DNA of 64,000 nucleotides from a virus: IMG/VR virus record IMGVR_UViG_3300049173_000078, positions 15,509-79,508 of that record. One strand, written 5' to 3'. Shown one piece after another: positions 35,568 through 62,841 of this stretch (its first letter is position 1; every line of letters begins with the position of its first letter). Below the pieces are notes generated by a model. That model was not told the DNA's origin. It made no database searches and saw only the letters and a list, made by a program, of their open reading frames with translations. A program made the position numbers and the translations under genes.

Positions 35568-35595
35568 GTTCCCTCCGAAGGAGTGGAATCCGGCT

Positions 35596-35626
35596 CGGCC
35601 CAAAACCAGCAGCGGCCCCCAGTTTA
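35596..35626 (-). promoter_or_regulatory. Late promoter element, copy 1
   Basis: TAAACT then GCTGGTTTTGGGCCG. Confidence 0.6.
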
Positions 35627-35663
35627 GGGCCCGGCGATCACGCGCCCGGAGCCCTTGCGGACG

Positions 35664-35993: not shown

Positions 35994-36007
35994 AGCACAG
36001 GCCCCGA

Positions 36008-39265: not shown

Positions 39266-40584
39266 CAGGAAGCCCGCCCGGACACGGCGAAGGACACCGT
39301 CGCGTCAGCCGCGGGCGGCACGAACGCATCGGACTCGATGCACAGGCAGAACTCGGCGCAGTTCAGCACGGGCCACGTCGGCGGCGCCCCGCCGTTGCCG
39401 TAGACGCTCGTCGCCGTCGAGCACTGCCGATTGCAGTCCAGCGTCGCCCGGCTCGTCTGCCCGTCGAGCAGCAGTTCCCCGCCGGCCGGAATGAACCCGA
39501 TCTCCCACCGCGCGTAGGGCTCGCACCGCTTCCGGTCGGCGAGCTCGGCACACGTCAGGTTCTCGTCGGCCTCCGTGCGCTGATACAGGCTGATCGTCAG
39601 CCGCCGCAGGTCCTCACTGCCCGCGAAGACGTTGATGATCGGCACGTCGTCGATCCACCCGGACCGGTTCGACAGGTCGATCGCGTAACACTCCTGGTTC
39701 GTGGCGAGCGCTTCGCAGAAGCAGGTCTCGGGCGCCGTCGGAACCGGCGGGGCGGGCGGCAGGCAGCTCGGGTCGGCGCACGCGTCCTGACTGTCGACGC
39801 ACTCCACGAGACGGCAGTCCGCGCACGGCACGCCGGGAGCGTGGATGCACCACTCGATGCACTCGGCGTCGTCATCGGTCGGCACGCCGACTTCGAGGAG
39901 CGGCACCTCGTCCGTGTACGCCCACGGAGTCGCGGCGGTCAGGGTGAACTCGACGGTGATGACGTCGGCGCCGAGCGAGCAGGCACCGCCGCCGCAGGTA
40001 CCCGTCCCGGCCCGGCCGGTCACCTTCGGCCCGTCGGTGAGCGCGACCCGCCGGTAGCTGCGACGGTGCGCGGCGTTGAACTCGTCGGCCGTCATGTCCT
40101 GGCCCGGACAGCAGTCGTACATGGTGACGCAGTCGCCGCCGCACTGCGAGCCCGTGCAGCCCTGGAGGGCCGCCGCCAGGTAGCGAAGCCCGAACTCGAC
40201 GCCGCAGCACGTCGCGCCGAGCAGGATCCCCGTCACGACGATGTCCCGCGGCTGCACGCGCGCCGGCCCGAGCGAGCCGCCGCCCGTGACTGACGCCGTC
40301 ACCGACCGCTTCACGGGGAAGTCGTCGACGCCCTCGACGCCGAGGACGAGGAACCCGGCGAACTCCGCCGACGCCGGGTCGCTCGGGTCGTACCACGGCG
40401 CAGGCGACGCGGCGTCGTCCGGAGTGGTGTACGGCTCGTCGCCGAGGACCTCGGCCGTGAACGTGTCGCAGGCGCAAATGTCCGACCCGCTGTCGAGCGG
40501 CGACCCCACGGTCCGCAGGTACTCGCGCAGCCGAGCCGTGTTCGTGATCTCCACGCCGCCGACGCTGATGTAGTCCGTCAACAA
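39265..40584 (-). CDS. Distal tail (Dit-like) minor tail protein, Cys-rich
   Basis: First gene after the tape measure; VEFTLTAATPWAY. Confidence 0.7.
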   Translation of the reverse strand: MLTDYISVGGVEITNTARLREYLRTVGSPLDSGSDICACDTFTAEVLGDEPYTTPDDAASPAPWYDPSDPASAEFAGFLVLGVEGVDDFPVKRSVTASVTGGGSLGPARVQPRDIVVTGILLGATCCGVEFGLRYLAAALQGCTGSQCGGDCVTMYDCCPGQDMTADEFNAAHRRSYRRVALTDGPKVTGRAGTGTCGGGACSLGADVITVEFTLTAATPWAYTDEVPLLEVGVPTDDDAECIEWCIHAPGVPCADCRLVECVDSQDACADPSCLPPAPPVPTAPETCFCEALATNQECYAIDLSNRSGWIDDVPIINVFAGSEDLRRLTISLYQRTEADENLTCAELADRKRCEPYARWEIGFIPAGGELLLDGQTSRATLDCNRQCSTATSVYGNGGAPPTWPVLNCAEFCLCIESDAFVPPAADATVSFAVSGRAS

Positions 40585-47038: not shown

Positions 47039-47848
47039 TTATGGCCAGGTCTGCGCCCGTGGGCGCCGGAAGTCGGGTGAGTAGACGCGGCTCGGCGACG
47101 TCTGGCGGTAGGGGTTGACGGTCGTCAGCCACAGGTCGACGAGCGGCAGGCCGGTGCGCATCTCGGAGTAGATGAGCGTCGGGTCGCTGAACTCCTGGTC
47201 GACGCCCTGCCGGCTCAGCCGCGTGACGTTCGCCGGCATTTTGCAGCCGCACGACCCGGAGCCGCCGCAGCCCTTGAGGAAGTGGCAGACGAGTTCGCTG
47301 TACGCGGCGATCGCGGCGTCGTCGAGGTGCAGCCCGATCCGGTAGTGAACGGCGAACGTGCCGGGCTGCCCGAGCGGCGCGGCCATGTCCTGGCAGTCGG
47401 GCCAGCAGCCGCCGTCGGTCCGCACGAGCATCCCGGCGTCGTCGACGCGGTACGCCGTCGCGGGCAGGGTGACGCCGTCGACTTCGACGCCGAGCACGTC
47501 GTACACCGGCCCTTCGAGGCGGACTTCGCAGAGCTCGGTGCACGAGCAGTCGGAACGGCAGCCGCACACGCTCGCGTTGCGCCACGCCCCGTCGCTGCCG
47601 ATGTACGGGATCCACGGCGAGCCGTACGACGTAGACGCCGCGAGCGGCAGTTCGTCGAGGCAGCGGCGACGGCAGGGGCGCACGGTGTACGGGCATGACG
47701 GACCCCACCGCCGGCCGGACAGGTTGAACAGGATCGTCGTCGCGACGCGGCGCCAACGGTCCAGGACCGCCGCGTCGACGCCTTCGGCCGCCGAGCAGCA
47801 TGAGTCGTCGAACGGCCACGGCTCGCACAGCGGCGTTTGCAGCGCCAT
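47039..47848 (-). CDS. Head-to-tail adaptor-like protein
   Basis: AT.ILF.LSGR.WG.C, V.VDG..L....YR, SRQGV, TGL..VD.WL..VNP. Confidence 0.7.
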   Translation of the reverse strand: MALQTPLCEPWPFDDSCCSAAEGVDAAVLDRWRRVATTILFNLSGRRWGPSCPYTVRPCRRRCLDELPLAASTSYGSPWIPYIGSDGAWRNASVCGCRSDCSCTELCEVRLEGPVYDVLGVEVDGVTLPATAYRVDDAGMLVRTDGGCWPDCQDMAAPLGQPGTFAVHYRIGLHLDDAAIAAYSELVCHFLKGCGGSGSCGCKMPANVTRLSRQGVDQEFSDPTLIYSEMRTGLPLVDLWLTTVNPYRQTSPSRVYSPDFRRPRAQTWP

Positions 47849-47943: not shown

Positions 47944-48624
47944 TCACGGCGTGGCCGGGACGGTCGCGTAGTCACACGACGGGACCGGCGGCGGCGTGGT
48001 GGTGATGAACGTCCGGCGGTGGCAGGACGCGTCGAGCGGGGTCAGCATCGGGCCCGGGGTGCCCGCGGCGTCGGCCGGCTGCACGTCGTAGGGGCCGACG
48101 CCCCACGAACCGCCCGCCTTGGTCGAGCCGGTGATCTGGAGCGTGACGGCTTCGCTGCCGATCTCCAGGTCGCCGAGCAGGCCGTTACTGACCCACGGCA
48201 GAAGGAAGTAGATCCACTGCCCTTCGGCGCCTTCCTCGCACTCGTTGCCGAGGACCTCGGCCCACAGCTCCAGCGCGAAGCCCGAGTCACACTTGACGGA
48301 GCAGGTGTCGAAGCCGATCGGCTTCCCGTCGAACCCCAGGTAGACGGGGTTACCGGTGAGGATCTCGATCAGCTCCGGGGAGACCGAGAACACGTTCAGT
48401 TCAAGATCGAATCCCCGGAACGTCGGACAGCCCTTCTTGTAGCCGCACACGCGGCCGTTGGCCGCCTTGTACTCGATGTCGTCGCCGTCGTCGGAGTTGT
48501 TGTTCATCGCCAGGCTGGCGAAGCAGTCGAAGACGAATCCGTTGAGACCGGCGACTGGATTCCCGCACTGGTCGAGGCGCGTGACGCGCATGACGTCGGC
48601 GTTGGCAATGAGCGGACAGGACAC
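47944..48624 (-). CDS. Major tail protein
   Basis: RVTRLD.CG, F.LELW, W.VGPYDV; has its own promoter element and terminator. Confidence 0.75.
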   Translation of the reverse strand: MSCPLIANADVMRVTRLDQCGNPVAGLNGFVFDCFASLAMNNNSDDGDDIEYKAANGRVCGYKKGCPTFRGFDLELNVFSVSPELIEILTGNPVYLGFDGKPIGFDTCSVKCDSGFALELWAEVLGNECEEGAEGQWIYFLLPWVSNGLLGDLEIGSEAVTLQITGSTKAGGSWGVGPYDVQPADAAGTPGPMLTPLDASCHRRTFITTTPPPVPSCDYATVPATP

Positions 48625-48704: not shown

Positions 48705-49010
48705 CTAAGGGGCCGTCGCCGTCGCGTGCACGGTGACCCCCGCCGCGGGCGTACCCGAGGCGAGGACGCCGATACCGAGGACGGTCACGCCGGCTGCCTG
48801 AAGCACGTTGACCGTCGTCGACGTCGCGGTGTTCGCCGAGATCCGCGCGGAGCGGAATCCCGCCCCCGCCTCGATGGCGAGCGCGACGACCGGCGGGCCC
48901 GGGAACGCCCCGGCGGGCCAGTTGAAGACGGCCGAGCCGTTGGCGTCCGTGACGGCAGTCGCGCGTTCCTGCCGTCGCTGCGGCGCCTCGTAGTCCCCGG
49001 CCGTGCTCAT
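48705..49010 (-). CDS. Small beta-domain virion protein, paralog of the 37734..38231 C-terminus
   Basis: VTDANG.A.F.W....F..PPVV...ATS.TV.V. Confidence 0.6.
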   Translation of the reverse strand: MSTAGDYEAPQRRQERATAVTDANGSAVFNWPAGAFPGPPVVALAIEAGAGFRSARISANTATSTTVNVLQAAGVTVLGIGVLASGTPAAGVTVHATATAP

Positions 49011-49480
49011 CAGATCTCGCGGGTCGACGAGACGAGGAAGTCACTGCCCGCGACGCCGGTGAATACGTAGGCGTCTTGCAGGCTCTCGCCGGCGTCGCCG
49101 CCTCGATCGACGCCCCACGTGAGCGAGGTCCCGGCCGCGACCGCGACCGGCGCGCCGCCGCCGATCGCGACGGTGGGGGTGCCGGCGTAGACGAGGAGCG
49201 TGATCGAGCGGGCCCCGGCCGGGATGGTGATCGCGCCCGCGGTGGTCTGCCGCTGGATCGTGCCGTCGAGGACAGGGTTCGGCGGGGCTACAGGTGCCTC
49301 GCAGCGCCGTACGGTCCCGACGGGCACGTACGCGGCGCCGTCGAGGTTCGTGTCCACGTGGGCCAGGGCGCCAGTGTCGTCGAGGACGTAGCGGCGCAGG
49401 AACGCGCCGTTCGAGTCGCAGAGGATCTCGTACTCGACGTCGGGCCTGCTGGCCGCGACGCTGCCGCTCGTGCCGGACAT
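49010..49480 (-). CDS. Single-module member of the LCD-FLR repeat family
   Basis: ILCDSNGAFLRRY...T.LDG..Y.P.GTV..C plus the shared C-terminal domain. Confidence 0.7.
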   Translation of the reverse strand: MSGTSGSVAASRPDVEYEILCDSNGAFLRRYVLDDTGALAHVDTNLDGAAYVPVGTVRRCEAPVAPPNPVLDGTIQRQTTAGAITIPAGARSITLLVYAGTPTVAIGGGAPVAVAAGTSLTWGVDRGGDAGESLQDAYVFTGVAGSDFLVSSTREI

Positions 49481-49505
49481 AAGGGCCTCCCAGGGAGATC
49501 GGGGG

Positions 49506-49976
49506 TCACGCGACGCGCGCGTACCGCAGGGTTGTTTGCTGGAGCGCGCCGGAACCGATACCGGCAACCTCGGTGGTCCCGGAAATATCGGTCCGAGAGG
49601 CTTCGAGCCGGATCGTCCTCGGGGACGTGACCGCGTAGGGAACGCTGATCGCAGCGGAGTCGTTCCACTGCAACGCGGTCGCGGCGCCCCCGGCGAACTC
49701 GGCGATCTGCACGACGATGGCCTCACTGAAGGGCACGACGGCGCCCGCAGTGACGTCCCACAGGCGGGCGCCGATGAACGCGTTCTCCCCCGTGGACATT
49801 CGGCCGATGTTGCCCCGGACCACCGCGTCGAGGTGGTAGGTGCCGGGCGCGGGAAGTGCGAGCGAGAGCCCGAGGTCGACCCATGCTCCGGAGGCGGCCG
49901 GCATGAGGTCGACGCCTGCCGGCAGTACGGCGAAGCCGTTGCCGCGGATGCTGATACTGGCTGCCGTTCCGGTCAT
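49506..49976 (-). CDS. Beta-sandwich tip-like protein, cassette 1
   Basis: LPAPGTYHLDAVVRG; paralog of the next three genes. Confidence 0.65.
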   Translation of the reverse strand: MTGTAASISIRGNGFAVLPAGVDLMPAASGAWVDLGLSLALPAPGTYHLDAVVRGNIGRMSTGENAFIGARLWDVTAGAVVPFSEAIVVQIAEFAGGAATALQWNDSAAISVPYAVTSPRTIRLEASRTDISGTTEVAGIGSGALQQTTLRYARVA

Positions 49977-50605
49977 GCCGGGGTGTCTCCTTCCGGAGCG
50001 ACCCAGTGGGCCGTGATGCTGACGCGTCCGTCGCCGTTGCTGACCACCGCAGCGGTTCCGCTCGTTCCGAGGCGACACGCCCCGAGTCGCACGGTGTCCC
50101 CGGCGACGAACGCGTGCATGCCCTGGCGGCAGGCCGACGCCTGGATCTGCTTGCCCTGATCGAGCGCGGCTTCGTTGTGGTAGATCACCAGGGCTTCGGT
50201 GCCTGGGACGAGCGCCCCGTTTTTGTACAGGCTCGCGACAACACCCGTGTCGATGGCCGCCGCTCCTGGCGCCGGAAGTTGCGCGACGCCGCGCACCTGG
50301 TAAGTGACCTCCCACACCCCAGCGCGCGGGATGACCAGCGTCGGCAGCTCGGTGACGACTTCCCACGCGCGGCTTGCTCCGGTGAGCGAATGGAGAAAAT
50401 CGGTCGGTGCGGTCTGCGCCCATGCCGAGTCGACGCCGATCCGCCAGGTTTGCGGGCAGTCGCCGTCGACGGGAGGTGTGACGGTCAGGCCCGGGTTCAC
50501 TCCGATCAGCACCTCGGGCACGAGCAGCCCGGATGCCGTCTCGGCCAGCGCGTTGCACGGGGCCGGATCAGGTCGGGATCGGATGCTGGCTGCCGTTCCG
50601 GTCAT
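49973..50605 (-). CDS. Beta-sandwich tip-like protein, cassette 2
   Basis: DPAPCNAL..TASGLLVP; IPRAGVWEVTYQVRG. Confidence 0.65.
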   Translation of the reverse strand: MTGTAASIRSRPDPAPCNALAETASGLLVPEVLIGVNPGLTVTPPVDGDCPQTWRIGVDSAWAQTAPTDFLHSLTGASRAWEVVTELPTLVIPRAGVWEVTYQVRGVAQLPAPGAAAIDTGVVASLYKNGALVPGTEALVIYHNEAALDQGKQIQASACRQGMHAFVAGDTVRLGACRLGTSGTAAVVSNGDGRVSITAHWVAPEGDTPA

Positions 50606-51294
50606 CAGTCGCTGACCTTCTGCCACATGATTCCCTGCTGGGGGATGCCGCTGGCCAGGTAGTGCTGAAGGTTGGCGTTGGCCTGTGTTCCCCCGTCGGC
50701 GGTCGCGCGCAGTCCTCGGATCTCGAATGTCGTCGGAGCGGTGATGGTGACGAACCCCTCGCATATCGCGTTGCCGCCGATGCTCTTGAGGCCGGTCTCC
50801 GGGTTCACCGTGCCGGGCTCGTCGTGAAGGAGCACCCATCGCGGGCTGCCGGTGACGAACTGATTCGTCGTGGTGTTGAACCACAGAGCCGTAATGGAGG
50901 CGATGTGACGGCCGTTGAAATTCCAGGTCGCGAGGGCGAAGAGGTGCGCGGTGAGCCGGTACACGCCCGGCTCGGGGAGCAGCACCTGGGAGTTCGGCAA
51001 GACAACCTGCTGCCCGATCGCCGACGTCCGCAGATCCGCCGTACCAGCGACACGGGACCCGAAGACAGGCGTCAACCGGGCCCCGACCGTCCAGGTCTCC
51101 GGGCACGCCCCGGCGGCCGGAGGTGTCACGTCCACGTCGACGGACCGCTCGGTGCCCACCGCCGTTCCCGGAGCGATGCCCGTGACCTGTGTACGCGGCA
51201 CAAGCAGGCCACTCGCGGTCTCCGTCAGAGCGTTGCACGCCGCCGGATCGAGCTTGGGGTCGATGCGGTACGTCCGCCCGCACGCTCCGGCCAT
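50605..51294 (-). CDS. Beta-sandwich tip-like protein, cassette 3
   Basis: LDPAACNALTETASGLLVPRT; LPEPGVYRLTAHL; ends in KVSD. Confidence 0.7.
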   Translation of the reverse strand: MAGACGRTYRIDPKLDPAACNALTETASGLLVPRTQVTGIAPGTAVGTERSVDVDVTPPAAGACPETWTVGARLTPVFGSRVAGTADLRTSAIGQQVVLPNSQVLLPEPGVYRLTAHLFALATWNFNGRHIASITALWFNTTTNQFVTGSPRWVLLHDEPGTVNPETGLKSIGGNAICEGFVTITAPTTFEIRGLRATADGGTQANANLQHYLASGIPQQGIMWQKVSD

Positions 51295-51941
51295 CAGTCG
51301 CTCACCTTCTTGAAGCGGAAGTTGTTGGCCCAGACGACTTTCTGCGAGGTGACTCCGGAGTCGGTACGCCAGGACCCTTCAACTCGGATCGTGGTCGGCC
51401 CGGCCACCTGATACAGCGCCGCCGCCGACGCGTCGGCCTGTATGCCGTTCGTGCCCGTGGCGTTCTGGTCGGTGAACAGGATGATGCGCCGAGCGGACAG
51501 CGGTATTGCGGCGCCGGCGGTGACGTCGAAAAGCCTTGCGTCGATGATCGCGTTCGTGACGCCGGCCCCCCACGCGATGGACCCCTGCACGTCCGCGATC
51601 AGCTCATAGACCCCGGCTTCCGGAAGCACCAACTGCGCGCCCGTGACGGGCACCCACACGTTGGCGGCAGCAGCGTCGAGGCTCACGGCGCCCGAGGTCT
51701 GCCCGGATACGGGCGTGAGGCGGGCGCCGACCGTCCACGTCGCCGGGCAGGCCGCCGCGGCGGGCGCCGTCACGTCCACGTCGACGGAACGCGACGTACC
51801 GACCGCCGTTCCGGGCGCGATGCCCGCCACTTCGGTGCGCGGCACGAGCAGCCCGGCCGCCGACTGTTCGAGGGCGTTGCAGCCGGCCGGATCGAGGCGC
51901 GGCACAGTGCGGACGCTGCCGCAGCAGTTACCGGCCATCAC
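51294..51941 (-). CDS. Beta-sandwich tip-like protein, cassette 4
   Basis: LDPAGCNALEQSAAGLLVPRT; LPEAGVYELIADVQG; ends in KVSD. Confidence 0.7.
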   Translation of the reverse strand: MMAGNCCGSVRTVPRLDPAGCNALEQSAAGLLVPRTEVAGIAPGTAVGTSRSVDVDVTAPAAAACPATWTVGARLTPVSGQTSGAVSLDAAAANVWVPVTGAQLVLPEAGVYELIADVQGSIAWGAGVTNAIIDARLFDVTAGAAIPLSARRIILFTDQNATGTNGIQADASAAALYQVAGPTTIRVEGSWRTDSGVTSQKVVWANNFRFKKVSD

Positions 51942-52147
51942 TCACCGCCGGTTGGGGCGGGGAGCGGGTCGGCCGCGAGGTCGGGCAGGCTCGCCAGGTA
52001 GGCGGCTTCGTCGACTTCCTCGTAGCCCAGCTCGGCATACGGGGAGTCGTCTCGCAGGTTGTAGACGACCTGAACGCCCTCACCGTCCTTCGCAAAGTAG
52101 CGAGGGTTTCGGACCGGCTCCGCGGCCTCGATGGTCTCGTCGCTCAT
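51938..52147 (-). CDS. Small acidic protein, possible fibre chaperone
   Basis: ATG with AGAGG RBS; YEEVDEAAY resembles the chaperone-like paralogs. Confidence 0.5.
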   Translation of the reverse strand: MSDETIEAAEPVRNPRYFAKDGEGVQVVYNLRDDSPYAELGYEEVDEAAYLASLPDLAADPLPAPTGGE

Positions 52148-52160
52148 GGCGCGCCTCTCC

Positions 52161-55100
52161 TTACCGGTAGGTCCAGTTGAGCAGGTAGTTCGCGGCGGCC
52201 GTCGTGCCGACGAACGTGGCGTGATCAAGCGTTGTGTCGTCGTCCTTGGCGACGGACCACGTCATCGTCACGCCGGCCGGGATCGTCACGTTCGCTCCGC
52301 TCGACATCGTCACGGCGACGAAGCCCGAGAGAACCGTCAGGGTGACGCTCTGCAAGCCGGAGAACTCGGCGGCGAGTTGCTGGTTGGCGATCCCCGTGAC
52401 GTTGCGAACGCCGGTCAGCACAGGACCCGGAAGCGCATCCGCCGCAGTGCATTCCACGGGCGCGACCGGCGCGTAGGGCTGGGTGAGGTCTCCGTCGAGG
52501 TAGGTGCCCAGCAGGGTCGGGGCGGCGCCGTCGCACGGGTCGACGGCCCACAGCTCGGTGTACGTGACGTCACCGGTGCCGTCGCCGTCGGTGTCGTCGC
52601 AGCCGCACCGCTCGATCACTTGCTTCGTGCACGACTCATTGGCGCCCGGGCACGGAACGACCGTCGCCCCGTCGGGGAGGGCGTCCTGTCGTACGCCGAG
52701 GTCGTCGAGGTAGTACATCTCGCCGTCGGTGCAGACGACCTGTGTCCACTCAAGGTATGCGGAGGCGTCGACGTCATACTCGGCAATGACGTGCAGGAGG
52801 ATCCCCGCCGCGCCCGTCGGGAACACCGTCTCCCGGACGTGGACGACGATTTCGTTGACGCCCGCCTGTGCCCCGGGAACCGCCGTCGGCGCGAGAGTGT
52901 AGGGCGGTGCGGTGTGGTTGCTGTTGACGGTCTGCCAAGCTCCCCCGTTCAGCCGCCACTCCACGGCGACTTGGTCAGCGTTCAGCGCGGTCGCCGAGAT
53001 ACGGATGGTGGCCGGGTCGGCGAACGACGGCAGTTGGAACGAGGCGCGCCCGTACCAGTCGGGCGTGCCTGCGGTGATCGCCGGACCCTCGCCCGGCAGG
53101 CCCGTGTTCGCGAGCTGACTGTCCGGGTGCGGCGCGATCCAGTGCGCCGTGCCCTCCGCGGTGCCCGGGTCGACGGTCGTCCAGCCGGGGTATACGCCGA
53201 CCCGATAGGTCGGGAACCAGGGACCGGCGAGGCTCTGCCCCCATGTCCAATCGGCGTCGACTCCGCTGGTGGCCGCGCCCGGATTGCTCAGGAACTCCAC
53301 CCGCCCGGAGGGGCGGACGCAGATCGGGGTGAGCTCGCATTCCGCGGGCTGGCACTGTCCCACGGCGCCCGTCGGGGCGTACGCGGTTTGTCCGTCGAGC
53401 GTGGTGTCGCGGTGGTCGGTCAGGGCGCCGGTCGCGGCGTCGTAGACGTAGTGCCGCAGGAACTCGGTCACGGTGCCGTCGGCGGCGGTGTCGCACAGCA
53501 GCAGAGGTTCGATGTCGTATTGCGGCTGGGACGCCCCGGAGTCCGCGCACTGGCGGACAGCCCCGATGAGGGTGTAAGGAGTGACGCCGTCCAGGGCGGT
53601 GTCTGTGGTGCGAGTGACCGCGCCGTCGCAGTCGCGGCAGATGGTGCGCAGGAACTGCCCGCTGGGGGTCGCGCTGACGGCGCCGACCCAGTAGTCGAAG
53701 AACCGCCCGCACAGGGCGATACGGCTGTTGGGCGGCGGCGCCGTCGTGAACTGCGTGACCGCGCTCGCGGTACGGAAGCGGGCGCTCGTCTCCACCTGCG
53801 GGTCAGTCACATACGAGCAGGGCTCGGCCGGGGTGGTGTCCGACGTGCGAGTCAGCACACCGGTTGACGCGTCGTAGGAATAGCCGGTCGGCAGGTGCAC
53901 GACGTCCAGCCCGGCGGGGAGCTGAGCCGTGTTGAGAGACGAGTTGACCGCGTTGAAGTGGAGATAGACCGAGAACTCCACGACAGACGGTCGCGAGAAC
54001 GTCCACTTCGTGGGGGCAACAGAAGGGTTGGGGAAGATGTGCAGCCCCCACCATGATCCGTCGCTGTTGTTGTAGGCGGGCGGCATCGCCTGAGTCCCGG
54101 CGGTGTTCGTCGCCGTCCAGGTCACGCCGTTCGACAGGCTTCCGGAAGCGGCGGCACCGGTGATCGTGGCCTCGGTGTCGGCGCCGTCGTCGCACAGCAG
54201 CAGCGTTTCGCAGTGCTGGCAGTCGGTCGGTTCGCAAGTGCTGGCCGTGCCGAGCACGGTGTACGCCGTGGTGCCGTCGAGCTCGGTGTCCGTGGTGGAG
54301 GTGACCGTGCCGTCGCAGCCGCGGCAGACGGTGCGCAGGAACGGGTACGGCTGCGCGGGGGCGGCCTCGATGTTGTCGAAGCCGATGGCTCCGCCTGTGA
54401 CAGACGCTGTGAAGTCGACGCTGTTCGCGACGCGCGGCAGGTAGATGTACGTGATGTAGTCGCCTGCGTTCGCCCCTCCCGAGGTGTCGCCGGACATGGT
54501 CGACGTCGCGTCAGCGGTGAGGATCCTCGTCGCCGGGGCGTAGGTGTGGTGCGAGGACAGCGACAGCACTTCCGCGCCGGGCGGCAGGGTCAGCGTCTGG
54601 TCGTGGGCGAGGCTGACGCCGATACGGATTTGAGCAGGCTTCGAGGTGGACAGCGTCGACGTGAGAGACGCGGCGGTCGGCAGCCAGCTCCGCATGTTGG
54701 TGTCGGGGTAGACGCCGCCGGCGGGGATGTTCCGCGTCCAGGTGACCGTGACGCCGTTCGCGAGCGTCTCGGGCGTGGCCTGCCCCTGCACCGTGGCCCA
54801 TTCGCCGGGGCCTGGCGTGACGTCGCAGAGCTGCACCGTCTCGCAGGTGAGGCACGGCGACGAGCAGACGCCGACGGTGCCGGTCGGTGTGTAGGCGGTG
54901 CCGTCGAGGAGGTAGTCACTGTGCCCGGTGATCGCGCCGTTCTCGTCCCGGCGGAAGTCGCGCAGGAACTCGGTCACCGTGCCGTCGGCGGCCGTGTCAC
55001 ACAGGACTACGGCGTCTTGCTCGGGCTGCTCCACCCCGGCCGGGCAGGTCGTCACGGTGCCGGTCGGCGTGTAGGTGCCGCCCGTGACGGCGTCGACGAG

Positions 55101-56387
55101 GCGCACGGAGGCGATCGCGCCTGTGTCGTCGTAGGTGTACTCGATCAGCACCAGGCCGAGGACGTCGCCGGTCGCAGGATCGATGTCGCAGAACGTTCCG
55201 GACACCTGGATCGAGCGGCTGTCTCCGCATGCCACGGTGCCGGCGGGGGGCGCGCCCGCGCTGTACGCGCCGCTCGTCAGGTTGAGCCAGCCCTCGGAGG
55301 TGACGGTGCCGGTGCAGTCCCGGACGACCGTGACCGCGATCGGGGTTCCGTCCGCGAGGCACAGGCCAACCGTCGCGGTGGGTTCGGTCGGTGAGGCGCA
55401 GGGGGTTTCGGTGTCGCACTGGCCGACCGTTCCCGCCACGGTGTACAGGGTGGTGCCGTCGAGGGTGGTGTCCGTGATGGTGGCGGTGCCGTCGCAGTCA
55501 CGGCACAGGTGCCGCATGAACTGCGTGGGCGTGCCGGGGCAGCCGGTGACCGGGACGGGGCCGGCCGTGACGGCGCCGGCCGTGACGGTCCACGTCTTGG
55601 CGTCCGGCTGCTGGTCGGGGCCGGTCTCAAGGTCGAACTCGATCGTGACGTCACCGGCGAGGACGGCGGCCACGGGAACGGTGTTCGTGATCGTCGCGGT
55701 GCGCGTCGAGCCGGGCGTGAAGAACACACCCGAGCCCTGGCCGAAGTTGTCGACGCCAGGAAGGAGGGTGGTGCCGTTCCACATGGACAGGCGGCCGTAC
55801 CAGTCCCATCCGCCGCCGGGGCCGTCGTTGGTGTACGTGACGGTCGCGGTGAGGTCGACGGTGCCGGCCGGGTCGAGGTCGCCGCAGGCGGCGTCGCCGA
55901 GCGAGACAATCACTCCGTAGTGGGTATGCGCGCCTCCGTCGGAGCCGCCCGGGGCGGCGCCCGGCACGCTCACCGTCTGGCCCGTCCAGATCGCCGCGGC
56001 GTCCGCATCAGTGCCGCGCCTCGGGGCGCCGCTGATGAGCTGGTCGTTGCGGACCTGATAGCCGGTGACGGTGACCGGCGCCGTGCTCGTCGTGACGGCT
56101 GCCGTGTCGCACAGGATGAACGTCTGGCAGTCCGGGCAGTCGCTGGATTCCGGGCACTGCTGGAGGGTGCCCTGCACCGTGTAGGCGACGCCCGTCGTGG
56201 GGTCGACCGTCCGCGTGGCGACGCGGGCTCCGCTGCTGGTGTCGTAGACCGGCTCGACCAGGACCAGGCCGGCGACCGTGCCGTCTGGGAGGACGTCGCA
56301 CAGGAGCAGCGTCTCGACGTCGACCCGCGCGGCGGCCGGGGTGGGGCTCATGATGATGGGGGTCTGGCCGCAGCCGCAACCGCTCAC
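52161..56387 (-). CDS. Giant Cys-rich modular repeat protein A (putative head fibre or decoration)
   Basis: 1408 aa; repeated LCD...FLR...CRDCDG...TDT.LDG..Y...G.V..C modules. Confidence 0.8.
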   Translation of the reverse strand: MSGCGCGQTPIIMSPTPAAARVDVETLLLCDVLPDGTVAGLVLVEPVYDTSSGARVATRTVDPTTGVAYTVQGTLQQCPESSDCPDCQTFILCDTAAVTTSTAPVTVTGYQVRNDQLISGAPRRGTDADAAAIWTGQTVSVPGAAPGGSDGGAHTHYGVIVSLGDAACGDLDPAGTVDLTATVTYTNDGPGGGWDWYGRLSMWNGTTLLPGVDNFGQGSGVFFTPGSTRTATITNTVPVAAVLAGDVTIEFDLETGPDQQPDAKTWTVTAGAVTAGPVPVTGCPGTPTQFMRHLCRDCDGTATITDTTLDGTTLYTVAGTVGQCDTETPCASPTEPTATVGLCLADGTPIAVTVVRDCTGTVTSEGWLNLTSGAYSAGAPPAGTVACGDSRSIQVSGTFCDIDPATGDVLGLVLIEYTYDDTGAIASVRLVDAVTGGTYTPTGTVTTCPAGVEQPEQDAVVLCDTAADGTVTEFLRDFRRDENGAITGHSDYLLDGTAYTPTGTVGVCSSPCLTCETVQLCDVTPGPGEWATVQGQATPETLANGVTVTWTRNIPAGGVYPDTNMRSWLPTAASLTSTLSTSKPAQIRIGVSLAHDQTLTLPPGAEVLSLSSHHTYAPATRILTADATSTMSGDTSGGANAGDYITYIYLPRVANSVDFTASVTGGAIGFDNIEAAPAQPYPFLRTVCRGCDGTVTSTTDTELDGTTAYTVLGTASTCEPTDCQHCETLLLCDDGADTEATITGAAASGSLSNGVTWTATNTAGTQAMPPAYNNSDGSWWGLHIFPNPSVAPTKWTFSRPSVVEFSVYLHFNAVNSSLNTAQLPAGLDVVHLPTGYSYDASTGVLTRTSDTTPAEPCSYVTDPQVETSARFRTASAVTQFTTAPPPNSRIALCGRFFDYWVGAVSATPSGQFLRTICRDCDGAVTRTTDTALDGVTPYTLIGAVRQCADSGASQPQYDIEPLLLCDTAADGTVTEFLRHYVYDAATGALTDHRDTTLDGQTAYAPTGAVGQCQPAECELTPICVRPSGRVEFLSNPGAATSGVDADWTWGQSLAGPWFPTYRVGVYPGWTTVDPGTAEGTAHWIAPHPDSQLANTGLPGEGPAITAGTPDWYGRASFQLPSFADPATIRISATALNADQVAVEWRLNGGAWQTVNSNHTAPPYTLAPTAVPGAQAGVNEIVVHVRETVFPTGAAGILLHVIAEYDVDASAYLEWTQVVCTDGEMYYLDDLGVRQDALPDGATVVPCPGANESCTKQVIERCGCDDTDGDGTGDVTYTELWAVDPCDGAAPTLLGTYLDGDLTQPYAPVAPVECTAADALPGPVLTGVRNVTGIANQQLAAEFSGLQSVTLTVLSGFVAVTMSSGANVTIPAGVTMTWSVAKDDDTTLDHATFVGTTAAANYLLNWTYR

Positions 56388-59300
56388 AGGTCTACTCCCT
56401 CAGTCCAGTTGACGACGACAGCACCCGTCGTCGCGGTGATCGTCAGTGGCCCGATGAGCCGCACGTCCATGTCTCTGGTGATGGACCACTGGGCGGTCTC
56501 GCCGTCGAAGAGCGTGCTCGTGCCGTCAGCGGTGATGACGGTGCCGGTCCCGCCGCGGGCGGTCGCCTGGACGGCGCGCAGCGTGCCGTACTGGGAGGCG
56601 TCCCACACCTTGCCCGGGGCGAGCTGTACGCGGTGCGCCTGCACGCCTACCGGGCGCTCGACGACAGGGTCCGGGGTGTCGCAGTCGACCGGCGCGACTG
56701 GCGTGTACGGCGTCGACAGGTCGCAGGTGTACGTGCCGAGCGAGGTAGGCGTGCCCGTGCAGTCGACGCCGAGGAGCTCGACGTACCAGGCGTCGGCGAT
56801 GCCGTCGCCGTCCGTGTCGTCGCACCTCTCCGCCTGCACGATGTTCCGTGCCGGGCACGGCGGTTCGGGGCAGCACTCACCGCCGCCGGCCTGGCACTGG
56901 CCGGGCTCGCCGGTGACCGTGTACGGCTCCCCGTCGAGGGTGGTGTCCGTGACAGAGACGACCGCGCCGGTCTCACAGTCGGTGGTGACGTTGCGGAGGA
57001 ACTGCGTGTCGCATCCGGTCTGGTCGTAGACCACCGTGGCGGCGAACTCGTCGAGCTGCCACCCGGTACGGCGCGGCGGCGGGCAGGTGGCGCCGCTGTC
57101 GTCGTAGGCGTCGAACGCGACCACGACGGCGATGTTCCCCGCGGCGAGGTCGGCGGCCGGGACGTCGGCCTCGGCGGTCAGCGTCCCGGTCCACCCGGCG
57201 GGGGTGTCGGGCGGGGCAAGGGCGAGGCCGACCCGGTTCGCGTCGCCGGGGCCGTTGTAGAGACCGAGGAACCCGGTTGCACGGCAGCCGTTATCCGGAC
57301 CGAGCTGGGTGACGTCGACCTGCACCGTCACGTGCGCGGTGCCGGCGTCGCAAACGGGCCGCGGGGCCTGGATGACCGCCGCGGCGGTGCGGACGGTGCC
57401 ACCTGTGCCCGGCTGCGGGCCTGACGCGGCCGGGAGGGTCAGCGTGCCGCCGTCCCACAGCGCTTGCGCCCCAGGTGTGGCCACGCCCGTGGTGTACGGG
57501 TAGTACGGCGCACCGGGGGTGTCCGTGAGGGTCGGGGTCGGTGCCCCGTCGGCGGGCAGGTCGCACAGCAGGAGCGTGCTGGCGTTGCGGCATGGCTCCG
57601 TCGCGGGCGGGGTGCTCGCGGGGGTGCACTGGCCGACTTCCCCGGTCGGCTCGTACGGGTCCCCGTCGAGGGTGGTGTCGGTGACAGCGGTGACGGCGCC
57701 GTCACAGTCGAGAGTGACGGATCGCAGGAACTGCGTCTCGCATCCGGCCTGGTCGTAGACGACGCGGGCGGTGAACTGGTCCACAATCCATCCGCCGACG
57801 TGGGCGGCAGTGTGCCAGGTCTCCAGCGCGCTCGCGAGGTGGACGTCTCCGGCGGCGACGTCGGCGGCCGATACCTGCCCGGACACGGTGAGGGTGCCGG
57901 TGTAACCGACCGGCGCGTTGTTCGGGGTGGTCACGACGGCAACGCGGGTACCGCCGGACCACAGGCTCCAAATGCCGTTGCCGCCGAACGCCGACGAGGG
58001 GCCGGTGCGCTGAACGCGGATGCTGGCCGTGATGGTGGCGGTGCCTGTGTCGCAGCCGGGCCGCTCGGCCTGGAGGTTTGCCGCGACCGAGCGGAGGTGC
58101 TGGTTGATGTGGCCGGGGCCGGGGCCGGTGTCTGCTGGGATGGTGATGGCGCCGCCGGACCACAAAGCCGCGGCGCCGCCGGGCAGTGGTTCCGCCCCGA
58201 GGCCGGCCCCTTGGTAGGCGGTGGGGTTGGTGTCGCTGACCGTGGGGGTGGGCTCGCCGCCGCTCGGCAGGTCGCACACGAGGAGCGTGCTTGCGGTGCG
58301 GCACGGCTCCGCTTCGGGCACGCATTGGGCGACGGTGCCAACCGGTGTGTAGGGGGCGCCGTCCAGGGTCAGGCTGACCACAGCGGTGACTGCGCCTGCG
58401 GCGTCCTGAACCAGCTTGCGGATGAACGGCCCGTTGTCGTCGCACAGCACCAGCTCCCCGTGGAACACCTGGGGAATGACGGGGACGGGACCGGGCACTT
58501 CGGTGGGGCACTGGCCCACGGTGCCGGTGACCGTGTACGGGGCGCCGGCCAGGGTGTAGTCCGTGTGGCCGACGATTTGCCCGTTCTCGTCGCGCCGGAA
58601 GTCGCGGATGAACCGGGTCACGGTGCCGTCGGCCGCGATGTCGCAGAGGACGACGAGGTCTTGTTCCGGCTGGTCGACGCCGGCCGGGCAGGTGGTGATC
58701 GTGCCCTGCGCGGTGTAGGCCTGTCCGGTGGTGGCGTCGACGAGGCGGACGCTCGACACGCTGCCGTCTGCCGCGTAGGTGTACTCGATCAGGACCAGGC
58801 CGACGACGTTCCCGTTCGCGTCGACGTCGCAGAACGTGCCGGTCGTCGAAATGCTGCGGGACTCGCCGCACGCCACGGTGCCGGCCGGTGGCTGCCCGGT
58901 CGAGTAGGCGCCGGTCGTGAGGTTGATCCAACCCTCTTCGCGGGTGACGCCCTGGCAGTCGCGGGTGACGACGACGGCGATCGGCGTCCCGTCGGCGAGG
59001 CACAGGCCCACCGTCGCGGCCGGCTCGCGCGGCTGCTCGCAGTCCGAGGTCTGCGAGCAGTCGCGGACGGTGCCCATCACGACGTGCGGGGCTTCGCCGT
59101 CGAGCGCGACGTCAACGTACCCGGCGGTCCCATCCGAGACGAACGTGAACCGGCGCAGGAACGGGCCCGAGTCGTCGCACAGCAGTTGCGTGTGACACGC
59201 CATGCTGCCGTGCTCGCAGTCGACCGGCGCGACCGGCGCGTACGGCGTTGACGGGTCGTCCTGGTAGGTGAGCAGCAACGACGTGGTGCCGTCGTCGCGA

Positions 59301-59647
59301 ACGCACCACAGCTCGCTGTAAGTGGTGTCGGCGAGGCCGTCGCCGTTCGTGTCGTCGCAGCGCTGGACGCACACCGTCTCGGCGCACGCCGTCGAGCACG
59401 AACCGCAGCCGGTAGGCGCGGGTCCAGCCGTGAAGATGCCGGTGGTCGGGTCGGTCCAGCCGGCGACCTCGGGCGGGAACACGGTCCCGCCGCAGTCGGC
59501 GCACGGCGAGCGCAGCACGACGAGGATCATCCGGCCGTCGTCGCAGCAGAGCGGCTGTGCGGTGATGGACGGCGAGCAGCAGGCGTCACCGGTGCCGCCG
59601 CCTCCGCCGCCGCCTCCGCACGAACAGGGGGTAGGGACGAGTGCCAT
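56384..59647 (-). CDS. Giant Cys-rich modular repeat protein B (putative head fibre or decoration)
   Basis: Same modules as protein A; ATG overlaps upstream TGA. Confidence 0.8.
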   Translation of the reverse strand: MALVPTPCSCGGGGGGGGTGDACCSPSITAQPLCCDDGRMILVVLRSPCADCGGTVFPPEVAGWTDPTTGIFTAGPAPTGCGSCSTACAETVCVQRCDDTNGDGLADTTYSELWCVRDDGTTSLLLTYQDDPSTPYAPVAPVDCEHGSMACHTQLLCDDSGPFLRRFTFVSDGTAGYVDVALDGEAPHVVMGTVRDCSQTSDCEQPREPAATVGLCLADGTPIAVVVTRDCQGVTREEGWINLTTGAYSTGQPPAGTVACGESRSISTTGTFCDVDANGNVVGLVLIEYTYAADGSVSSVRLVDATTGQAYTAQGTITTCPAGVDQPEQDLVVLCDIAADGTVTRFIRDFRRDENGQIVGHTDYTLAGAPYTVTGTVGQCPTEVPGPVPVIPQVFHGELVLCDDNGPFIRKLVQDAAGAVTAVVSLTLDGAPYTPVGTVAQCVPEAEPCRTASTLLVCDLPSGGEPTPTVSDTNPTAYQGAGLGAEPLPGGAAALWSGGAITIPADTGPGPGHINQHLRSVAANLQAERPGCDTGTATITASIRVQRTGPSSAFGGNGIWSLWSGGTRVAVVTTPNNAPVGYTGTLTVSGQVSAADVAAGDVHLASALETWHTAAHVGGWIVDQFTARVVYDQAGCETQFLRSVTLDCDGAVTAVTDTTLDGDPYEPTGEVGQCTPASTPPATEPCRNASTLLLCDLPADGAPTPTLTDTPGAPYYPYTTGVATPGAQALWDGGTLTLPAASGPQPGTGGTVRTAAAVIQAPRPVCDAGTAHVTVQVDVTQLGPDNGCRATGFLGLYNGPGDANRVGLALAPPDTPAGWTGTLTAEADVPAADLAAGNIAVVVAFDAYDDSGATCPPPRRTGWQLDEFAATVVYDQTGCDTQFLRNVTTDCETGAVVSVTDTTLDGEPYTVTGEPGQCQAGGGECCPEPPCPARNIVQAERCDDTDGDGIADAWYVELLGVDCTGTPTSLGTYTCDLSTPYTPVAPVDCDTPDPVVERPVGVQAHRVQLAPGKVWDASQYGTLRAVQATARGGTGTVITADGTSTLFDGETAQWSITRDMDVRLIGPLTITATTGAVVVNWTEGVDL

Positions 59648-60291
59648 CAGCGGGCCCCCTCCGTGTGCGCCTGTCGGCGGTGGGTGTCCCGGCCGCGCCG
59701 GGTGTCGAACTCGCGCGGGCACAGGTCGCACTGCCACGGCCCGGCGTTCCCGTCGCCCTCGGCGGGAGTGGTGGTCGTGTCGCTGCTGCCCCCTCCGACA
59801 GCAGCGCTCGTCGACTCATCACGCGCGGCGTTGGACGCGGCGAGTTCGGTTGCCACCGTGACGGCGTCCATGGCGCGCTGGATCGCCTCGGGCGGGGTGG
59901 CGGCGACCATCGCCGCGGCGTCCGCTTCCGGGTCGCCCACGCTCGTGCTCTCGACGACGGCCGCGCCGTCGTCGCCGGGCTCGGCGGAGGCGGGCGGGAG
60001 CGGCACGGAGCCGGGCGGGTACGCCGACTCGGGGACGGGCGGCAGCGGTTCGCCGGGCACGGCGGTGAGCATCCCCGCCTCGGGGTCGGCGTCTTCGAGC
60101 GGCGAGCGGTACCGCTGCCCGTCGACGAGCGAGCCGACGAGCAGGTCTTCCGGCATATCGGCGAACAGGTCCGGGGGGACCGCGTACGCGTCGTGCGAGC
60201 ACTTGCGGACCATGGGGGTCTGCTCGATCGCCCACAGGGCGAAGTCGCCGCGGACCCGGGCGGCCGGCTGTACGCGAATGGTCGTCAGCAC
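59647..60291 (-). CDS. Protein with C-terminal C2H2 zinc finger
   Basis: WQCDLCPREFDTRRGRDTHRRQAH. Confidence 0.7.
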   Translation of the reverse strand: MLTTIRVQPAARVRGDFALWAIEQTPMVRKCSHDAYAVPPDLFADMPEDLLVGSLVDGQRYRSPLEDADPEAGMLTAVPGEPLPPVPESAYPPGSVPLPPASAEPGDDGAAVVESTSVGDPEADAAAMVAATPPEAIQRAMDAVTVATELAASNAARDESTSAAVGGGSSDTTTTPAEGDGNAGPWQCDLCPREFDTRRGRDTHRRQAHTEGAR

Positions 60292-61121
60292 GGGCACACC
60301 GCCACCCTGATGGCCGCCGCCTCGCAGCACGCCGTTTCGACGACGAACGTCCGCTCGGCGAGGACGAACCGGTCGTTCGTCGCGATGCGCACGGCCTGGC
60401 TGTCGGAGTCCGGCACGATGACCGGCTGCTCGCGGCGGACCCGCACGGGCCCGGTGATGTACAGCCACGCCTCGCCGTCGGGGGCCTGCGTACAGGCGGC
60501 GCCGCCGATGTTCAGGGCGTAGCCCGCGCCGAGGACGACGCAGTTGCCCATGAGGGTGCGGGGCGCGCCCTGGTCGAGTTCGACGACGCGGCAGCAGCCC
60601 ATGAGCGCCGCCGCGCCTGCGGGGACGTGCAGCACGCCTTGCCCGCCGTACGCCTCGGCGAGCCATCCTTCGAGGGCGGCGACGCCCTGCGCGATCGACA
60701 CGGCGCCGGCTGCCGGGGTGAGGTCGTTGCCCTGCGCCATTTCGCAAAGCTGCTCGCGCATGAACCACTCTTCGAGCGCGCGCTGTTCGCCGAGCGCGAG
60801 TGTTTCGCTGGCCTGCGTCACGGCGTCGTCGTACGACCAGCCGATCGCCGAGCAGGTCGCGCCCGCGTAAATCGTGATCGGTGGTGCCGAGCACGAGCCG
60901 GGCCGGTCGAAGGTCTTCGTGCTCGGGCCGGGCGGCGTCGCCGGGTCGGGGCACCAGTCCCAGTCATGCGCGCCCGCGCACGACAGGGGCATCCACTCGG
61001 TACCGAGCAGCTCGTGTTCGTCGGTGGCGTCGACGACCTCGACGCAGTCCCCGAGGATGCCGTGAGGCAGAGGACGGCCGCGGATGGCCTCGACGCGCTT
61101 ACGAAGTCCTGCCGAAGGCAT
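60285..61121 (-). CDS. Second capsid-type protein (putative major capsid pentamer protein)
   Basis: Directly after the major capsid gene; GVAALEGWLA..YGGQGVLH pattern recalled from two-capsid actinophages. Confidence 0.5.
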   Translation of the reverse strand: MPSAGLRKRVEAIRGRPLPHGILGDCVEVVDATDEHELLGTEWMPLSCAGAHDWDWCPDPATPPGPSTKTFDRPGSCSAPPITIYAGATCSAIGWSYDDAVTQASETLALGEQRALEEWFMREQLCEMAQGNDLTPAAGAVSIAQGVAALEGWLAEAYGGQGVLHVPAGAAALMGCCRVVELDQGAPRTLMGNCVVLGAGYALNIGGAACTQAPDGEAWLYITGPVRVRREQPVIVPDSDSQAVRIATNDRFVLAERTFVVETACCEAAAIRVAVCPC

Positions 61122-61194: not shown

Positions 61195-62841
61195 TCAGGC
61201 GATCGGGCAGGCGGGGACGGCGCGCGGGCCGACCGAGCCGTCCGCGCAGACCGGGACGGTCACGCGCCGCGACTCGATGCCGCGGTTGACGAGGGCGACG
61301 CACTCTTCGGCGAAGATCGCGGTGAAGTCGTTGGTCGCGAAGCGGTTCGAGTCGTGGACGACGCCGAGGTTGATCTCCGCGCCGCGACCGAGCTGGAAGT
61401 TGCCCGTCGGGTAGATGAGGAACTCGACGTCGGCCGGCCAGGTGGTCGCCGGGTTGGTGCCGCCGATGTTGGTCGGGACGTCGGGGACGAGGCCCTTCGC
61501 CCACTGGACGCGGACACCGAGGGTCGCGAAGGCGTCCTCGATGCAGTTCGCGGGCAGGTCGCAGACGTCGGTGTTCGAGCGGCGGGCGATGTCCGCGAGG
61601 AACATCCCGCGCGACCACCACGGGAACACGACCTCCAGGCCGATCCGCTCACAGAGCGAGTGCTTCTCCACGATGTCGGCGACCTGGAGGGCCACGGCGC
61701 CGTAAACGGCGCTGAACGACGCGAAGGAAGTGGGCACGGTGACGGCGGTCGACGCGTTGCGGGCCTGCTCGTACAGGGCGCGGCGGATCCGCATCTCGTG
61801 CGCCACCATGACGTTGCGCTGGTACCAGTTGACCAGCTCCGGGAAGTGCCTGGACGTGAGGATGCCCGCCTCAAGGCAGACGCCGACCGCGTCGCAGCGG
61901 ACCTCGATCGGGTCCGGGCAGGGGATGCGGAAGCAAGGTTTCGTCGGTCCGCCCGGCGTGGCCGCTGCCTCGTCCTGCGCTTCGGTCCAGATCCACGTCA
62001 TGGCGTTGACGTCGAGCGTCGGGGTCTGGAAGAACCGGATGCCGCCGCGGCTGAGCTGGATCTCGGGAAGGTCCCACAGGCCGTCGGGGCACGCGATGTC
62101 GGTGATGTCATAGATCGTCTCGGACGGCGCACACCATCCGCCCGAAGCGATGAGGTCAGCCTTCGGGAGGCGCCGCTGATCGGCTGCCTTGACGACGGCG
62201 TTCAGGCCTTCGCCCGGGTTGCCGGGGTCGGCGACGACCAGGCCGCTCGTCTCGTCGAACGGCAGCCGGTACGACGCGACGATGCCGGTTCCGCCACCCG
62301 AGGACGCGAGCGCGCCCGCGCGCTTGATGATGCCCTCGGTCAGCGTCTCCATGGAGATGCCCTCGCCCGGCGCGACGCCGGGCATGTCGACCGAGGCGAC
62401 GATCTCGGGGGCATTGAGCTTCGGCACCTGCGGCATGAGCTGACGCGGCGCGCGCTGCCGAACTGAGTTGAGGGTGACGACCGGACGGCGAGGCGTCGCG
62501 GACGCGGCGACGGCGGCCGGCTCGTCCGCGACGACGGTCTCACTCCCGGCGGCGTCGGCGGCCTCGGCCGGCTCGTCGCCGGTCGCGGTGTCCTCGCCGA
62601 GGACCTGCGCGGCCAGCTGGTCGAGTTCGGCCTGTGCCTGCTGCGCCTCGCCGATCAGCTCGGTCTGCCGGCCGCGCATGGCCTCGATACCGGCGGCGAG
62701 TTCGCGCAGGGCGGGCAGGTCTTCGGTGGTGAGGTTCGGGTCGCTGCGCCGGGCCTGGAACGCCTCGGTCGCCTCCGTGATGTGCGCGTCGAGGTCCTCG
62801 GCGCTCAGGCTGGTGATGTCGTCGGGCAGTTCGTAACCCAT
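61195..62841 (-). CDS. Major capsid (hexamer) protein with N-terminal scaffold-like coiled coil
   Basis: GGWCAPSETIYD, LPEIQLSRGGIRF, KPCFRIPCP; follows the protease; has its own promoter element. Confidence 0.85.
   Translation of the reverse strand: MGYELPDDITSLSAEDLDAHITEATEAFQARRSDPNLTTEDLPALRELAAGIEAMRGRQTELIGEAQQAQAELDQLAAQVLGEDTATGDEPAEAADAAGSETVVADEPAAVAASATPRRPVVTLNSVRQRAPRQLMPQVPKLNAPEIVASVDMPGVAPGEGISMETLTEGIIKRAGALASSGGGTGIVASYRLPFDETSGLVVADPGNPGEGLNAVVKAADQRRLPKADLIASGGWCAPSETIYDITDIACPDGLWDLPEIQLSRGGIRFFQTPTLDVNAMTWIWTEAQDEAAATPGGPTKPCFRIPCPDPIEVRCDAVGVCLEAGILTSRHFPELVNWYQRNVMVAHEMRIRRALYEQARNASTAVTVPTSFASFSAVYGAVALQVADIVEKHSLCERIGLEVVFPWWSRGMFLADIARRSNTDVCDLPANCIEDAFATLGVRVQWAKGLVPDVPTNIGGTNPATTWPADVEFLIYPTGNFQLGRGAEINLGVVHDSNRFATNDFTAIFAEECVALVNRGIESRRVTVPVCADGSVGPRAVPACPIA

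Follow-up and report, generated by a model that had tools for sequence, protein, structure and literature searches.

Giant proteins built from a repeated cysteine module, with whole domains inserted in one fixed loop, encoded in an accessory cassette among the late genes of a putative actinophage

What is the role of the giant proteins that a virus encodes directly after its capsid genes, and of the domains that they carry? We addressed this question in a 64,000-nucleotide stretch (the window, whose coordinates are used throughout) of IMG/VR virus record IMGVR_UViG_3300049173_000078, positions 15,509 to 79,508, which has a G+C content of about 70% and belongs to an 88-kb record. All genes between 33 kb and 64 kb of the window lie on the minus strand, and so do all the features described here. 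The proteins in question are B (1087 residues from an ATG at 59647; 56384-59647), A (1408 residues; 52161-56387) and the smaller C (156 residues; 49010-49480), encoded in a cassette of about 10 kb within a genome of about 65 kb. Little is known of how phages that infect filamentous actinomycetes locate and retain their hosts, and this cassette carries no annotation anywhere. We propose, with a probability of roughly 0.6, that it equips the virion of a temperate actinophage of Streptomyces type with an optional appendage for multivalent glycan binding, probably stapled by disulfides.

The three proteins match the profile of PHROG 18824 significantly (E = 1e-224 for B, 2.5e-251 for A and 9.3e-10 for C), a family whose function label is unknown. 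Pfam, NCBIfam and PDB sequence searches gave nothing usable for A, B, C, each of their inserted domains or the neighbouring genes, and a literature search for the module family returned genome announcements alone, in which the genes are listed as hypothetical. The original prediction, made from the sequence alone, had not recognised the arrangement as one already described, in agreement with these results.

One module, one loop and several kinds of passenger

The module spans 45-55 residues with the pattern hhhCD-loop-F(L/I/M)R...LDG..Y...G.V..C. Hidden Markov models (HMMs) built from the window's own copies represent four variants, namely an FLR type, a GLVL type, an LCLADG type and a Ca-type with DDTDGDG, and place nine copies in A, ten in B and one in C; no match arose when A and B were shuffled 200 times. 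An alignment of 100 plain FLR modules yields the consensus xxxLCD...DG....FLR.......G......DT.LDG.TPYTP.GTVG.C, in which both end cysteines and the arginine are invariant.

Protein B, whose residue numbers follow an open reading frame translation where the ATG at 59647 is residue 31, consists of a conserved N-terminal cysteine peptide, ten modules, two of them with passenger domains of the family F0 defined below, and a small C-terminal jelly roll; its N-terminus, MPVEPVPC..GGG..CC.PSI, is kept among homologues. A starts with the peptide MSGCGCG and continues with nine to ten modules, which bear three passengers (one F0 and two F1), followed by a galactose-binding-like domain, a Ca-type module and a small C-terminal jelly roll. 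C is reduced to one plain module (49301-49432) and a C-terminal jelly roll related to the ends of A and B. The translated N-termini of A and B contain no hydrophobic signal-peptide or membrane stretch.

A and B have in common a block of three consecutive modules (LCLA, GLVL and FLR types), located at 54864-55373 in A and at 58508-59014 in B, and a comparison of 54870-55391 with 58514-59032 gives 72-75% identity in DNA and 68% in protein. Nothing in the family is better conserved than this block, which is also the region matched in Saccharomonospora phage PIS 136 and in the Streptomyces phages Mischief19 and Xkcd426. At the other end of A, the Ca-type module (A 1257-1313) and the C-terminal jelly roll of about 90 residues (A 1320-1408), together at 52164-52619, have paralogues in B (56387-56836) and in C, the C-terminal domains of A and B being 39% identical (E = 2.8e-18). 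No near-identical DNA repeats that would mark a recent duplication or a diversity-generating template were found; the copies are 65-90% identical. A cysteine module recurring in A, B and the gene at 49010, a block of about 170 residues common to A and B and related C-terminal domains had all been claimed beforehand, and the translations, HMM placements and alignments bear the three claims out.

The family is not confined to this virus, since Mischief19 gp18, Xkcd426 gp17 and gp18 and PIS 136 PIS_002 are members of PHROG 18824 and true homologues, with the same modules and a three-module block at 41-46% identity. These proteins are hypothetical and unstudied, range from 354 to 1169 residues and differ in architecture; PIS 136 has one giant gene and one small paralogue. 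In the woodruffviruses Mischief19 and Xkcd426 the genes occupy the corresponding place after the capsid genes.

The loop between hCD and F(L/I/M)R was measured in 610 modules of 122 homologues. It comprises 4 residues in 149 modules, 9 in 189 and 140-230 in 259, with a few others of 0-17 residues, and no loop of 18-139 residues occurs in this sample. Five modules of the window harbor a whole domain at this point: A1 (55533-56105; A 95-285) in the β1-β2 loop of the module at A 88-324, A2 (54354-54824; A 522-678) in that at A 517-718, A3 (53667-54188; A 734-907) in that at A 728-947, B1 (57743-58270; B 490-665) in the β1-β2 loop of the module at B 484-704, and B2 (57014-57559; B 727-908) in that at B 721-948. 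The galactose-binding-like domain of A (52731-53321; A 1023-1219) stands in line with the modules.

Across 235 homologues we counted 490 loop inserts, from 0 to 6 per protein, and 220 distinct architectures with 4 to 20 units per protein, C alone having one. The inserts belong to the families F0 (214, including A1, B1 and B2), F1 (170, including A2 and A3), F2 (75) and F3 (27), plus a few rare ones. In profile comparisons F3 is homologous to the in-line domain of A (hhalign 99.2%, E = 6.6e-20), F0 may be a distant relative of that domain (85%), and F1 and F2 stand apart, implying that at least three unrelated domain types occupy one and the same loop. The original prediction had placed three inserts in A and two in B, either short or whole-domain in size and always plugged into one fixed loop, as well as a lectin-like domain near 52790-53330; the coordinates of the inserts agree within a few bases, the two size classes are seen in the 610 modules and the fixed loop in both surveys, and the lectin-like domain is the in-line one. 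It had also spoken of variable adhesion domains, which is right for the number, order and sequence of the passengers, but the inserts come mostly from four sequence families.

Passengers diverge faster than the scaffold, with identities between orthologues of 45-49% for the former and 61-72% for the modules. Passenger-bearing units also differ from plain units in their cysteines: an extra one is found just before the first strand in 98% and just after FLR in 97% of the former, compared with 49% and 15% of the latter. In about one third of the passenger-bearing units a CxxC stands on both sides of the insert.

Predicted folds and the closest known systems

AlphaFold2 models of B 180-720 and A 720-1408 have a mean predicted local distance difference test score (pLDDT) of 83.9 and 88.3, respectively. 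The modules are modeled as three- to four-stranded meanders, predicted confidently as monomers, and are connected by linkers of low pLDDT, in agreement with the beads-on-a-string scaffold that had been envisaged. The passengers are modeled as compact all-beta domains inserted after strand 1 and before strand 2, with a pLDDT >90 for B1 and a high pLDDT for A3.

The VIA structural search reports aligned ranges, which we read domain by domain, and its matches mostly lie at Z values of 7-9, which the tool itself calls common for models without clear relatives. For B1, representing F0, it returned CBM61 (Z 8.8), the carbohydrate-binding module (CBM) CBM2 of the evolved Dit of phage J-1 (PDB 5ly8; Z 8.1 over 154 residues) and the binding domain of the short tail fibre of cyanophage A-1(L) (Z 8.1), with MAM domains and TNF-like lectins as further matches; CBM4-2 was matched at Z 7.7. 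The region A 1028-1204 matched GH2 N-terminal sugar-binding domains (Z 8-9.1; Atlas TM-score 0.54), and no named fold match surfaced for A3, of family F1, in the structural searches. These Z values are moderate and indicate a kind of fold, not a function, and on the models the F0 passengers and the in-line domain are predicted to be CBM or galactose-binding-like jelly rolls. When whole models were compared by Foldseek with PDB, AFDB clusters and BFVD, most of the output consisted of noisy all-beta multidomain alignments with TM-scores <0.2.

Sequence evidence for sugar binding comes solely from one homologue, P0205, which as a whole protein scores 29.8 bits against Pfam CBM_4_9 (PF02018; gathering cut-off 25.9 bits). 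The match falls on its F2 passenger (residues 86-260, between LLLCD and PFLR), which alone scores 19.7 bits. Together with the VIA and Atlas matches, it points to adhesion-type folds of the passengers, in line with the original prediction. The resemblance of the in-line domain to a GH2 glycosidase domain might instead suggest that the chains are depolymerases, which degrade polysaccharides rather than purely bind them. However, what is matched is the non-catalytic N-terminal sugar-binding domain alone, and A and B contain no catalytic family recognised in Pfam, NCBIfam or PDB, which makes an enzymatic role very improbable.

Optional virion parts that add CBMs are known from siphophages of lactic acid bacteria, in the form of the neck passage structure (NPS), the evolved Dit and TpeX: in the evolved Dit the CBM sits in a loop of a structural domain, as CBM2 does in J-1, and the NPS combines a constant anchor with a variable CBM end (PMC6669499). 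The appendage proposed here would follow the same principle, and the F0 match to 5ly8 is in agreement with it. The sequences are unrelated, however, and the scaffold is a repeated two-cysteine module of 45-55 residues instead of a Dit galectin domain or a helical fibre; unlike the proteins of those phages, one chain holds up to six passengers. A and B gave no Dit match, and the Dit-like gene of the window lies about 12 kb away, which sets them apart from evolved Dits; no fibre family was found for either protein in Pfam or PHROGs. The principle of a CBM accessory is already known from phages of lactic acid bacteria; what is new is the scaffold module, the grafting of domains into its loop and the combinatorial range of architectures.

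The last 85 or so residues of A gave a different kind of match, with cupins (Z 8.6) and Bacillus Ena pilus subunits (Z 7.8; PDB 7a02 and 8pdz). The Ena alignment covers 82 residues with a root-mean-square deviation of 3.0-3.1 and 21% identity to 7a02, an entry titled as disulfide-linked pili. Cupins score equally well and the Ena subunit family (DUF3992) gave no Pfam match, so that the likeness, confined to the fold of the C-terminal domain, is a lead only. Ena subunits are joined through an N-terminal cysteine connector, which would parallel the cysteine-rich N-termini of A and B.

An accessory cassette and the possible place of its products

From high to low coordinates, the late genes encode the hexon major capsid protein (MCP; 61195-62841, phrog_777 in a PHROG scan), a 278-residue protein (60285-61121, phrog_779), a small conserved protein of 214 residues (59647-60291, phrog_30321/phrog_17728), B, A, a protein of about 69 residues, four paralogues, C, a 101-residue protein, the major tail protein (47944-48624, phrog_792, E = 2e-89) and the head-tail adaptor (47039-47848, phrog_783, E = 7e-87). 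The cassette had been placed between capsid and neck genes, which is correct on the upstream side; downstream its neighbour is the major tail gene, and the adaptor comes after that. Stop and start codons overlap consecutively among the 278-residue, 214-residue, B and A genes. The B start forms a TGATG overlap with the gene before it and the A start a GTGA overlap with B, and both are preceded by Shine-Dalgarno sites (GGAGG and GAGGGAG, respectively). The 278-residue protein is probably a separate penton capsid protein, given that one of its 268 phage homologues is annotated 'major capsid pentamer protein' and that a 594-residue hexon MCP is followed by a 257-residue penton MCP in mycobacteriophage Jabs (bioRxiv 10.64898/2026.07.24.740622).

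The plain-module profile matched 748 cluster representatives among 1.84 billion proteins, and all named sources are actinomycetes or actinophages. Word-indexed searches gave 460 and 288 relatives, each of which bears the label 'hypothetical'; their sources include Streptomyces, Nonomuraea, Streptosporangium, Microbispora, Planomonospora and Kitasatospora. In 46-48 of 49 IMG/VR loci the capsid, penton-like and small genes stand directly upstream, and the major tail gene follows downstream wherever the flank extends that far. The whole order of B, A, paralogues, C and 101-residue gene is kept in Nonomuraea and Microbispora prophages, again after the MCP, penton-like and small genes and before the major tail gene; about 10 of the 49 loci show no recognisable paralogue, C or 101-residue gene and may carry the giant genes alone.

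In the lytic relative YDN12 the small gene is followed directly by the major tail gene and the cassette is absent, so that it must be dispensable for making a phage and is accessory. At this same point Xkcd426 has its module genes, inside an insertion of more than 6 kb that its authors reported as an extra segment (PMC5511901). The cassette occurs mainly in prophages and is frequent in those of Streptomyces, Nonomuraea, Streptosporangium and their relatives. As a side observation, Streptomyces sp. NBC_01590 has a module-protein relative on its 102-kb plasmid unnamed2 (81487-89532), which may be a plasmid-prophage, and another on its chromosome.

This gene order invites the reading that A and B are display fibres anchored at the capsid or neck, on hexons and pentons or on the portal and connector, made with the head and decorating it. 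Their genes directly follow two capsid genes and are translationally coupled to them, and in all loci the major tail gene comes downstream of them; the NPS collar of lactococcal phages is similarly non-essential, reportedly expressed with the capsid and CBM-ended (PMC6669499). On the other hand, the order is atypical, with the major tail gene before the adaptor, and Mischief19 has its tape measure gene (gene 8) ahead of the portal gene, apart from the other tail genes, making gene order a poor guide to virion location in this lineage. Besides, the lengths of the MCP, penton-like, small, portal and adaptor proteins are not obviously different with and without the cassette, and the Jabs capsid has no decoration proteins. 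The capsid anchorage of the original prediction is thus unsupported, its sole hints being gene position and translational coupling, which do not separate head, neck and tail, and we consider a head or neck placement rather unlikely.

Side fibres of the tail or baseplate represent another possible arrangement, in which the N-terminal cysteine peptides of A, B and the small paralogues would be disulfide-tied to Dit or to the tail tube. CxC or CCG motifs are found at the N-termini not only of A and B but also of the tail-fibre-like proteins encoded at 34866-36859 and of two among the four paralogues, phrog_18509 is common to the 101-residue gene and a collagen-like tail protein, and the BFVD neighbours outside the family are mostly minor tail, tail fibre and host-specificity proteins, though at low TM-scores. 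In Jabs the receptor-binding proteins ORF61 and ORF62 are CBM-like, of about 200 residues, and tied to Dit by N-terminal cysteines (10.64898/2026.07.24.740622). The resemblance between the cysteine motifs is short, however, and about 12 kb plus the tape measure gene separate the cassette from the tail-tip genes; we consider a position on the tail rather unlikely as well.

A third alternative is that the proteins do not enter the virion at all, being released at lysis to coat host walls and debris, which would spare progeny from dead cells, or serving the lysogen. The accessory status of the cassette and its occurrence mainly in prophages would fit, and incorporation into particles is itself inferred; but a lysogen that is still alive could hardly export proteins that have no signal peptide, the genes belong to the late operon and are coupled to capsid genes, and the conserved terminal regions are typical of docking ends. 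We regard this alternative as quite improbable.

What favors an optional adhesion appendage is where the genes stand in the late operon and how they are coupled there, together with ends that are conserved, the absence of export signals, and passengers that have adhesion-type folds and diverge faster than the scaffold. A and B would then be accessory structural proteins acting as multivalent glycan adhesins. Each chain would be a flexible string of nine to ten small beta-meander modules, closed by probable disulfides between their end cysteines, and in some modules a complete CBM-type jelly roll of 140-230 residues would replace the turn of the first hairpin, its base probably clamped by the extra cysteine on each side. 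The conserved ends, that is, the N-terminal cysteine peptides and the C-terminal Ca-type module with the small jelly roll, would attach the chains to one another or to the particle, and the four paralogues, C and the 101-residue protein may contribute additional parts, or the tips, to this optional device. The passengers would bind cell-wall polysaccharides of hyphae or spores, providing a first, reversible, avidity-based attachment beside the receptor-binding proteins of the tail tip. Jabs makes disulfide stapling and cysteine anchoring of A (MSGCGCG) and B (MPVEPVPC...CC) plausible: it has about 1,700 virion disulfides on the same two-MCP capsid plan (bioRxiv 10.64898/2026.07.24.740622), along with the N-terminal ties already mentioned. 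The analogy lies in the described architecture; the adhesion device of Jabs is on Dit/Tal, and the parts of the preprint consulted describe no giant module proteins.

Several points weigh against this proposal. For every member of the family, presence in the virion, disulfides, sugar binding and a role in adsorption are what we infer. The fold matches are middling, with Z values of 8-9 being common without clear relatives, and the five passengers and the in-line domain of the window have no CBM match in Pfam at E up to 1. Instead of forming disulfides, the CxxC...CxxC sets might be zinc sites. A complex prediction for the C-terminal regions of A, B and C scored 0.01, which is neutral on binding. 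Finally, a full tail-tip adhesion set is already encoded at 34.8-40.6 kb, and it is not evident why a second device would be needed.

A bolder version, which we put forward only tentatively, holds that the module is a new, self-contained mini-domain serving as a general loop-grafting platform, on which domains are swapped and locked by the extra cysteine pair, and that the chains form a covalently tied actinophage appendage, of a kind that microscopy has yet to reveal, deciding the first attachment of a temperate phage to hyphae or spores. With loop swapping of whole binding domains, recombination may build almost any combination. Should the main reading hold, the family would offer natural, compact domains that bind sugars of actinomycete cell-wall polymers, a small stapled scaffold able to accept whole domains, of interest for protein display, and a testable determinant of adsorption and host range in Xkcd426 and Mischief19 versus the related YDN12.

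Smaller cassette genes and neighbouring genes

Just after A lies the small acidic gene of about 69 residues (51938-52147), which is conserved in other cassettes, with 65% identity in a Microbispora prophage, and was seen in 15 of the 49 loci. It has no family match; considered as a tail-fibre assembly chaperone, it matched no such family. The four paralogues (157-229 residues; phrog_25393/phrog_20306) follow at 51294-51941, 50605-51294, 49973-50629 and 49506-49979, the first two opening with N-terminal CCG/ACG motifs. Of the 49 viral loci, 32 combine such paralogues with module proteins, and the one in PIS 136 is PIS_001. The similarity of the first paralogue to the tail-fibre-like protein at 36011-36859 is not significant; this paralogue gave no tblastn match in the phage collection and, in Atlas, a weak lead to C1q-like proteins. 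C is 62-70% identical to its counterparts in Nonomuraea and Microbispora prophages. The last gene of the cassette encodes the 101-residue protein (48705-49010; phrog_18509), which shows 39% identity over 87 residues (E = 0.002) to the C-terminal part of the collagen-like tail protein (37737-38231), the part of the latter that matches phrog_18509.

Beyond the tape measure gene (40622-44869, PHROG scan), the Dit-like gene adjoining it (39268-40584; phrog_838) is followed by a minor tail gene and by genes of collagen-like and fibre-like proteins, which extend to about 34.8 kb. The two fibre-like genes (34866-36859) each precede a partner gene of about 100 residues, and neither the fibre-like proteins nor the one partner scanned matched a Pfam or PHROG family.

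Short N-terminal cysteine motifs occur as CGCG in A (56352-56387), CSCGGGG in B (59560-59647), NCCG (51915-51941) and ACG (51270-51294) in the paralogues, and CQCGGGGCNC (36800-36859) and CKCGGAQCNC (35520-35564) in the tail-fibre-like proteins; by analogy with Jabs ORF61 and ORF62, they could be a common disulfide anchor. The 278-residue protein also ends in a cysteine-rich tail (VCPC). The small gene upstream of B encodes 214 residues here and 117-140 residues in Mischief19, Xkcd426, YDN12 and two prophages, with about the first 65 residues alone common to the shorter homologues, and its extension gave a weak C2H2 zinc-finger-like match (E = 0.09).

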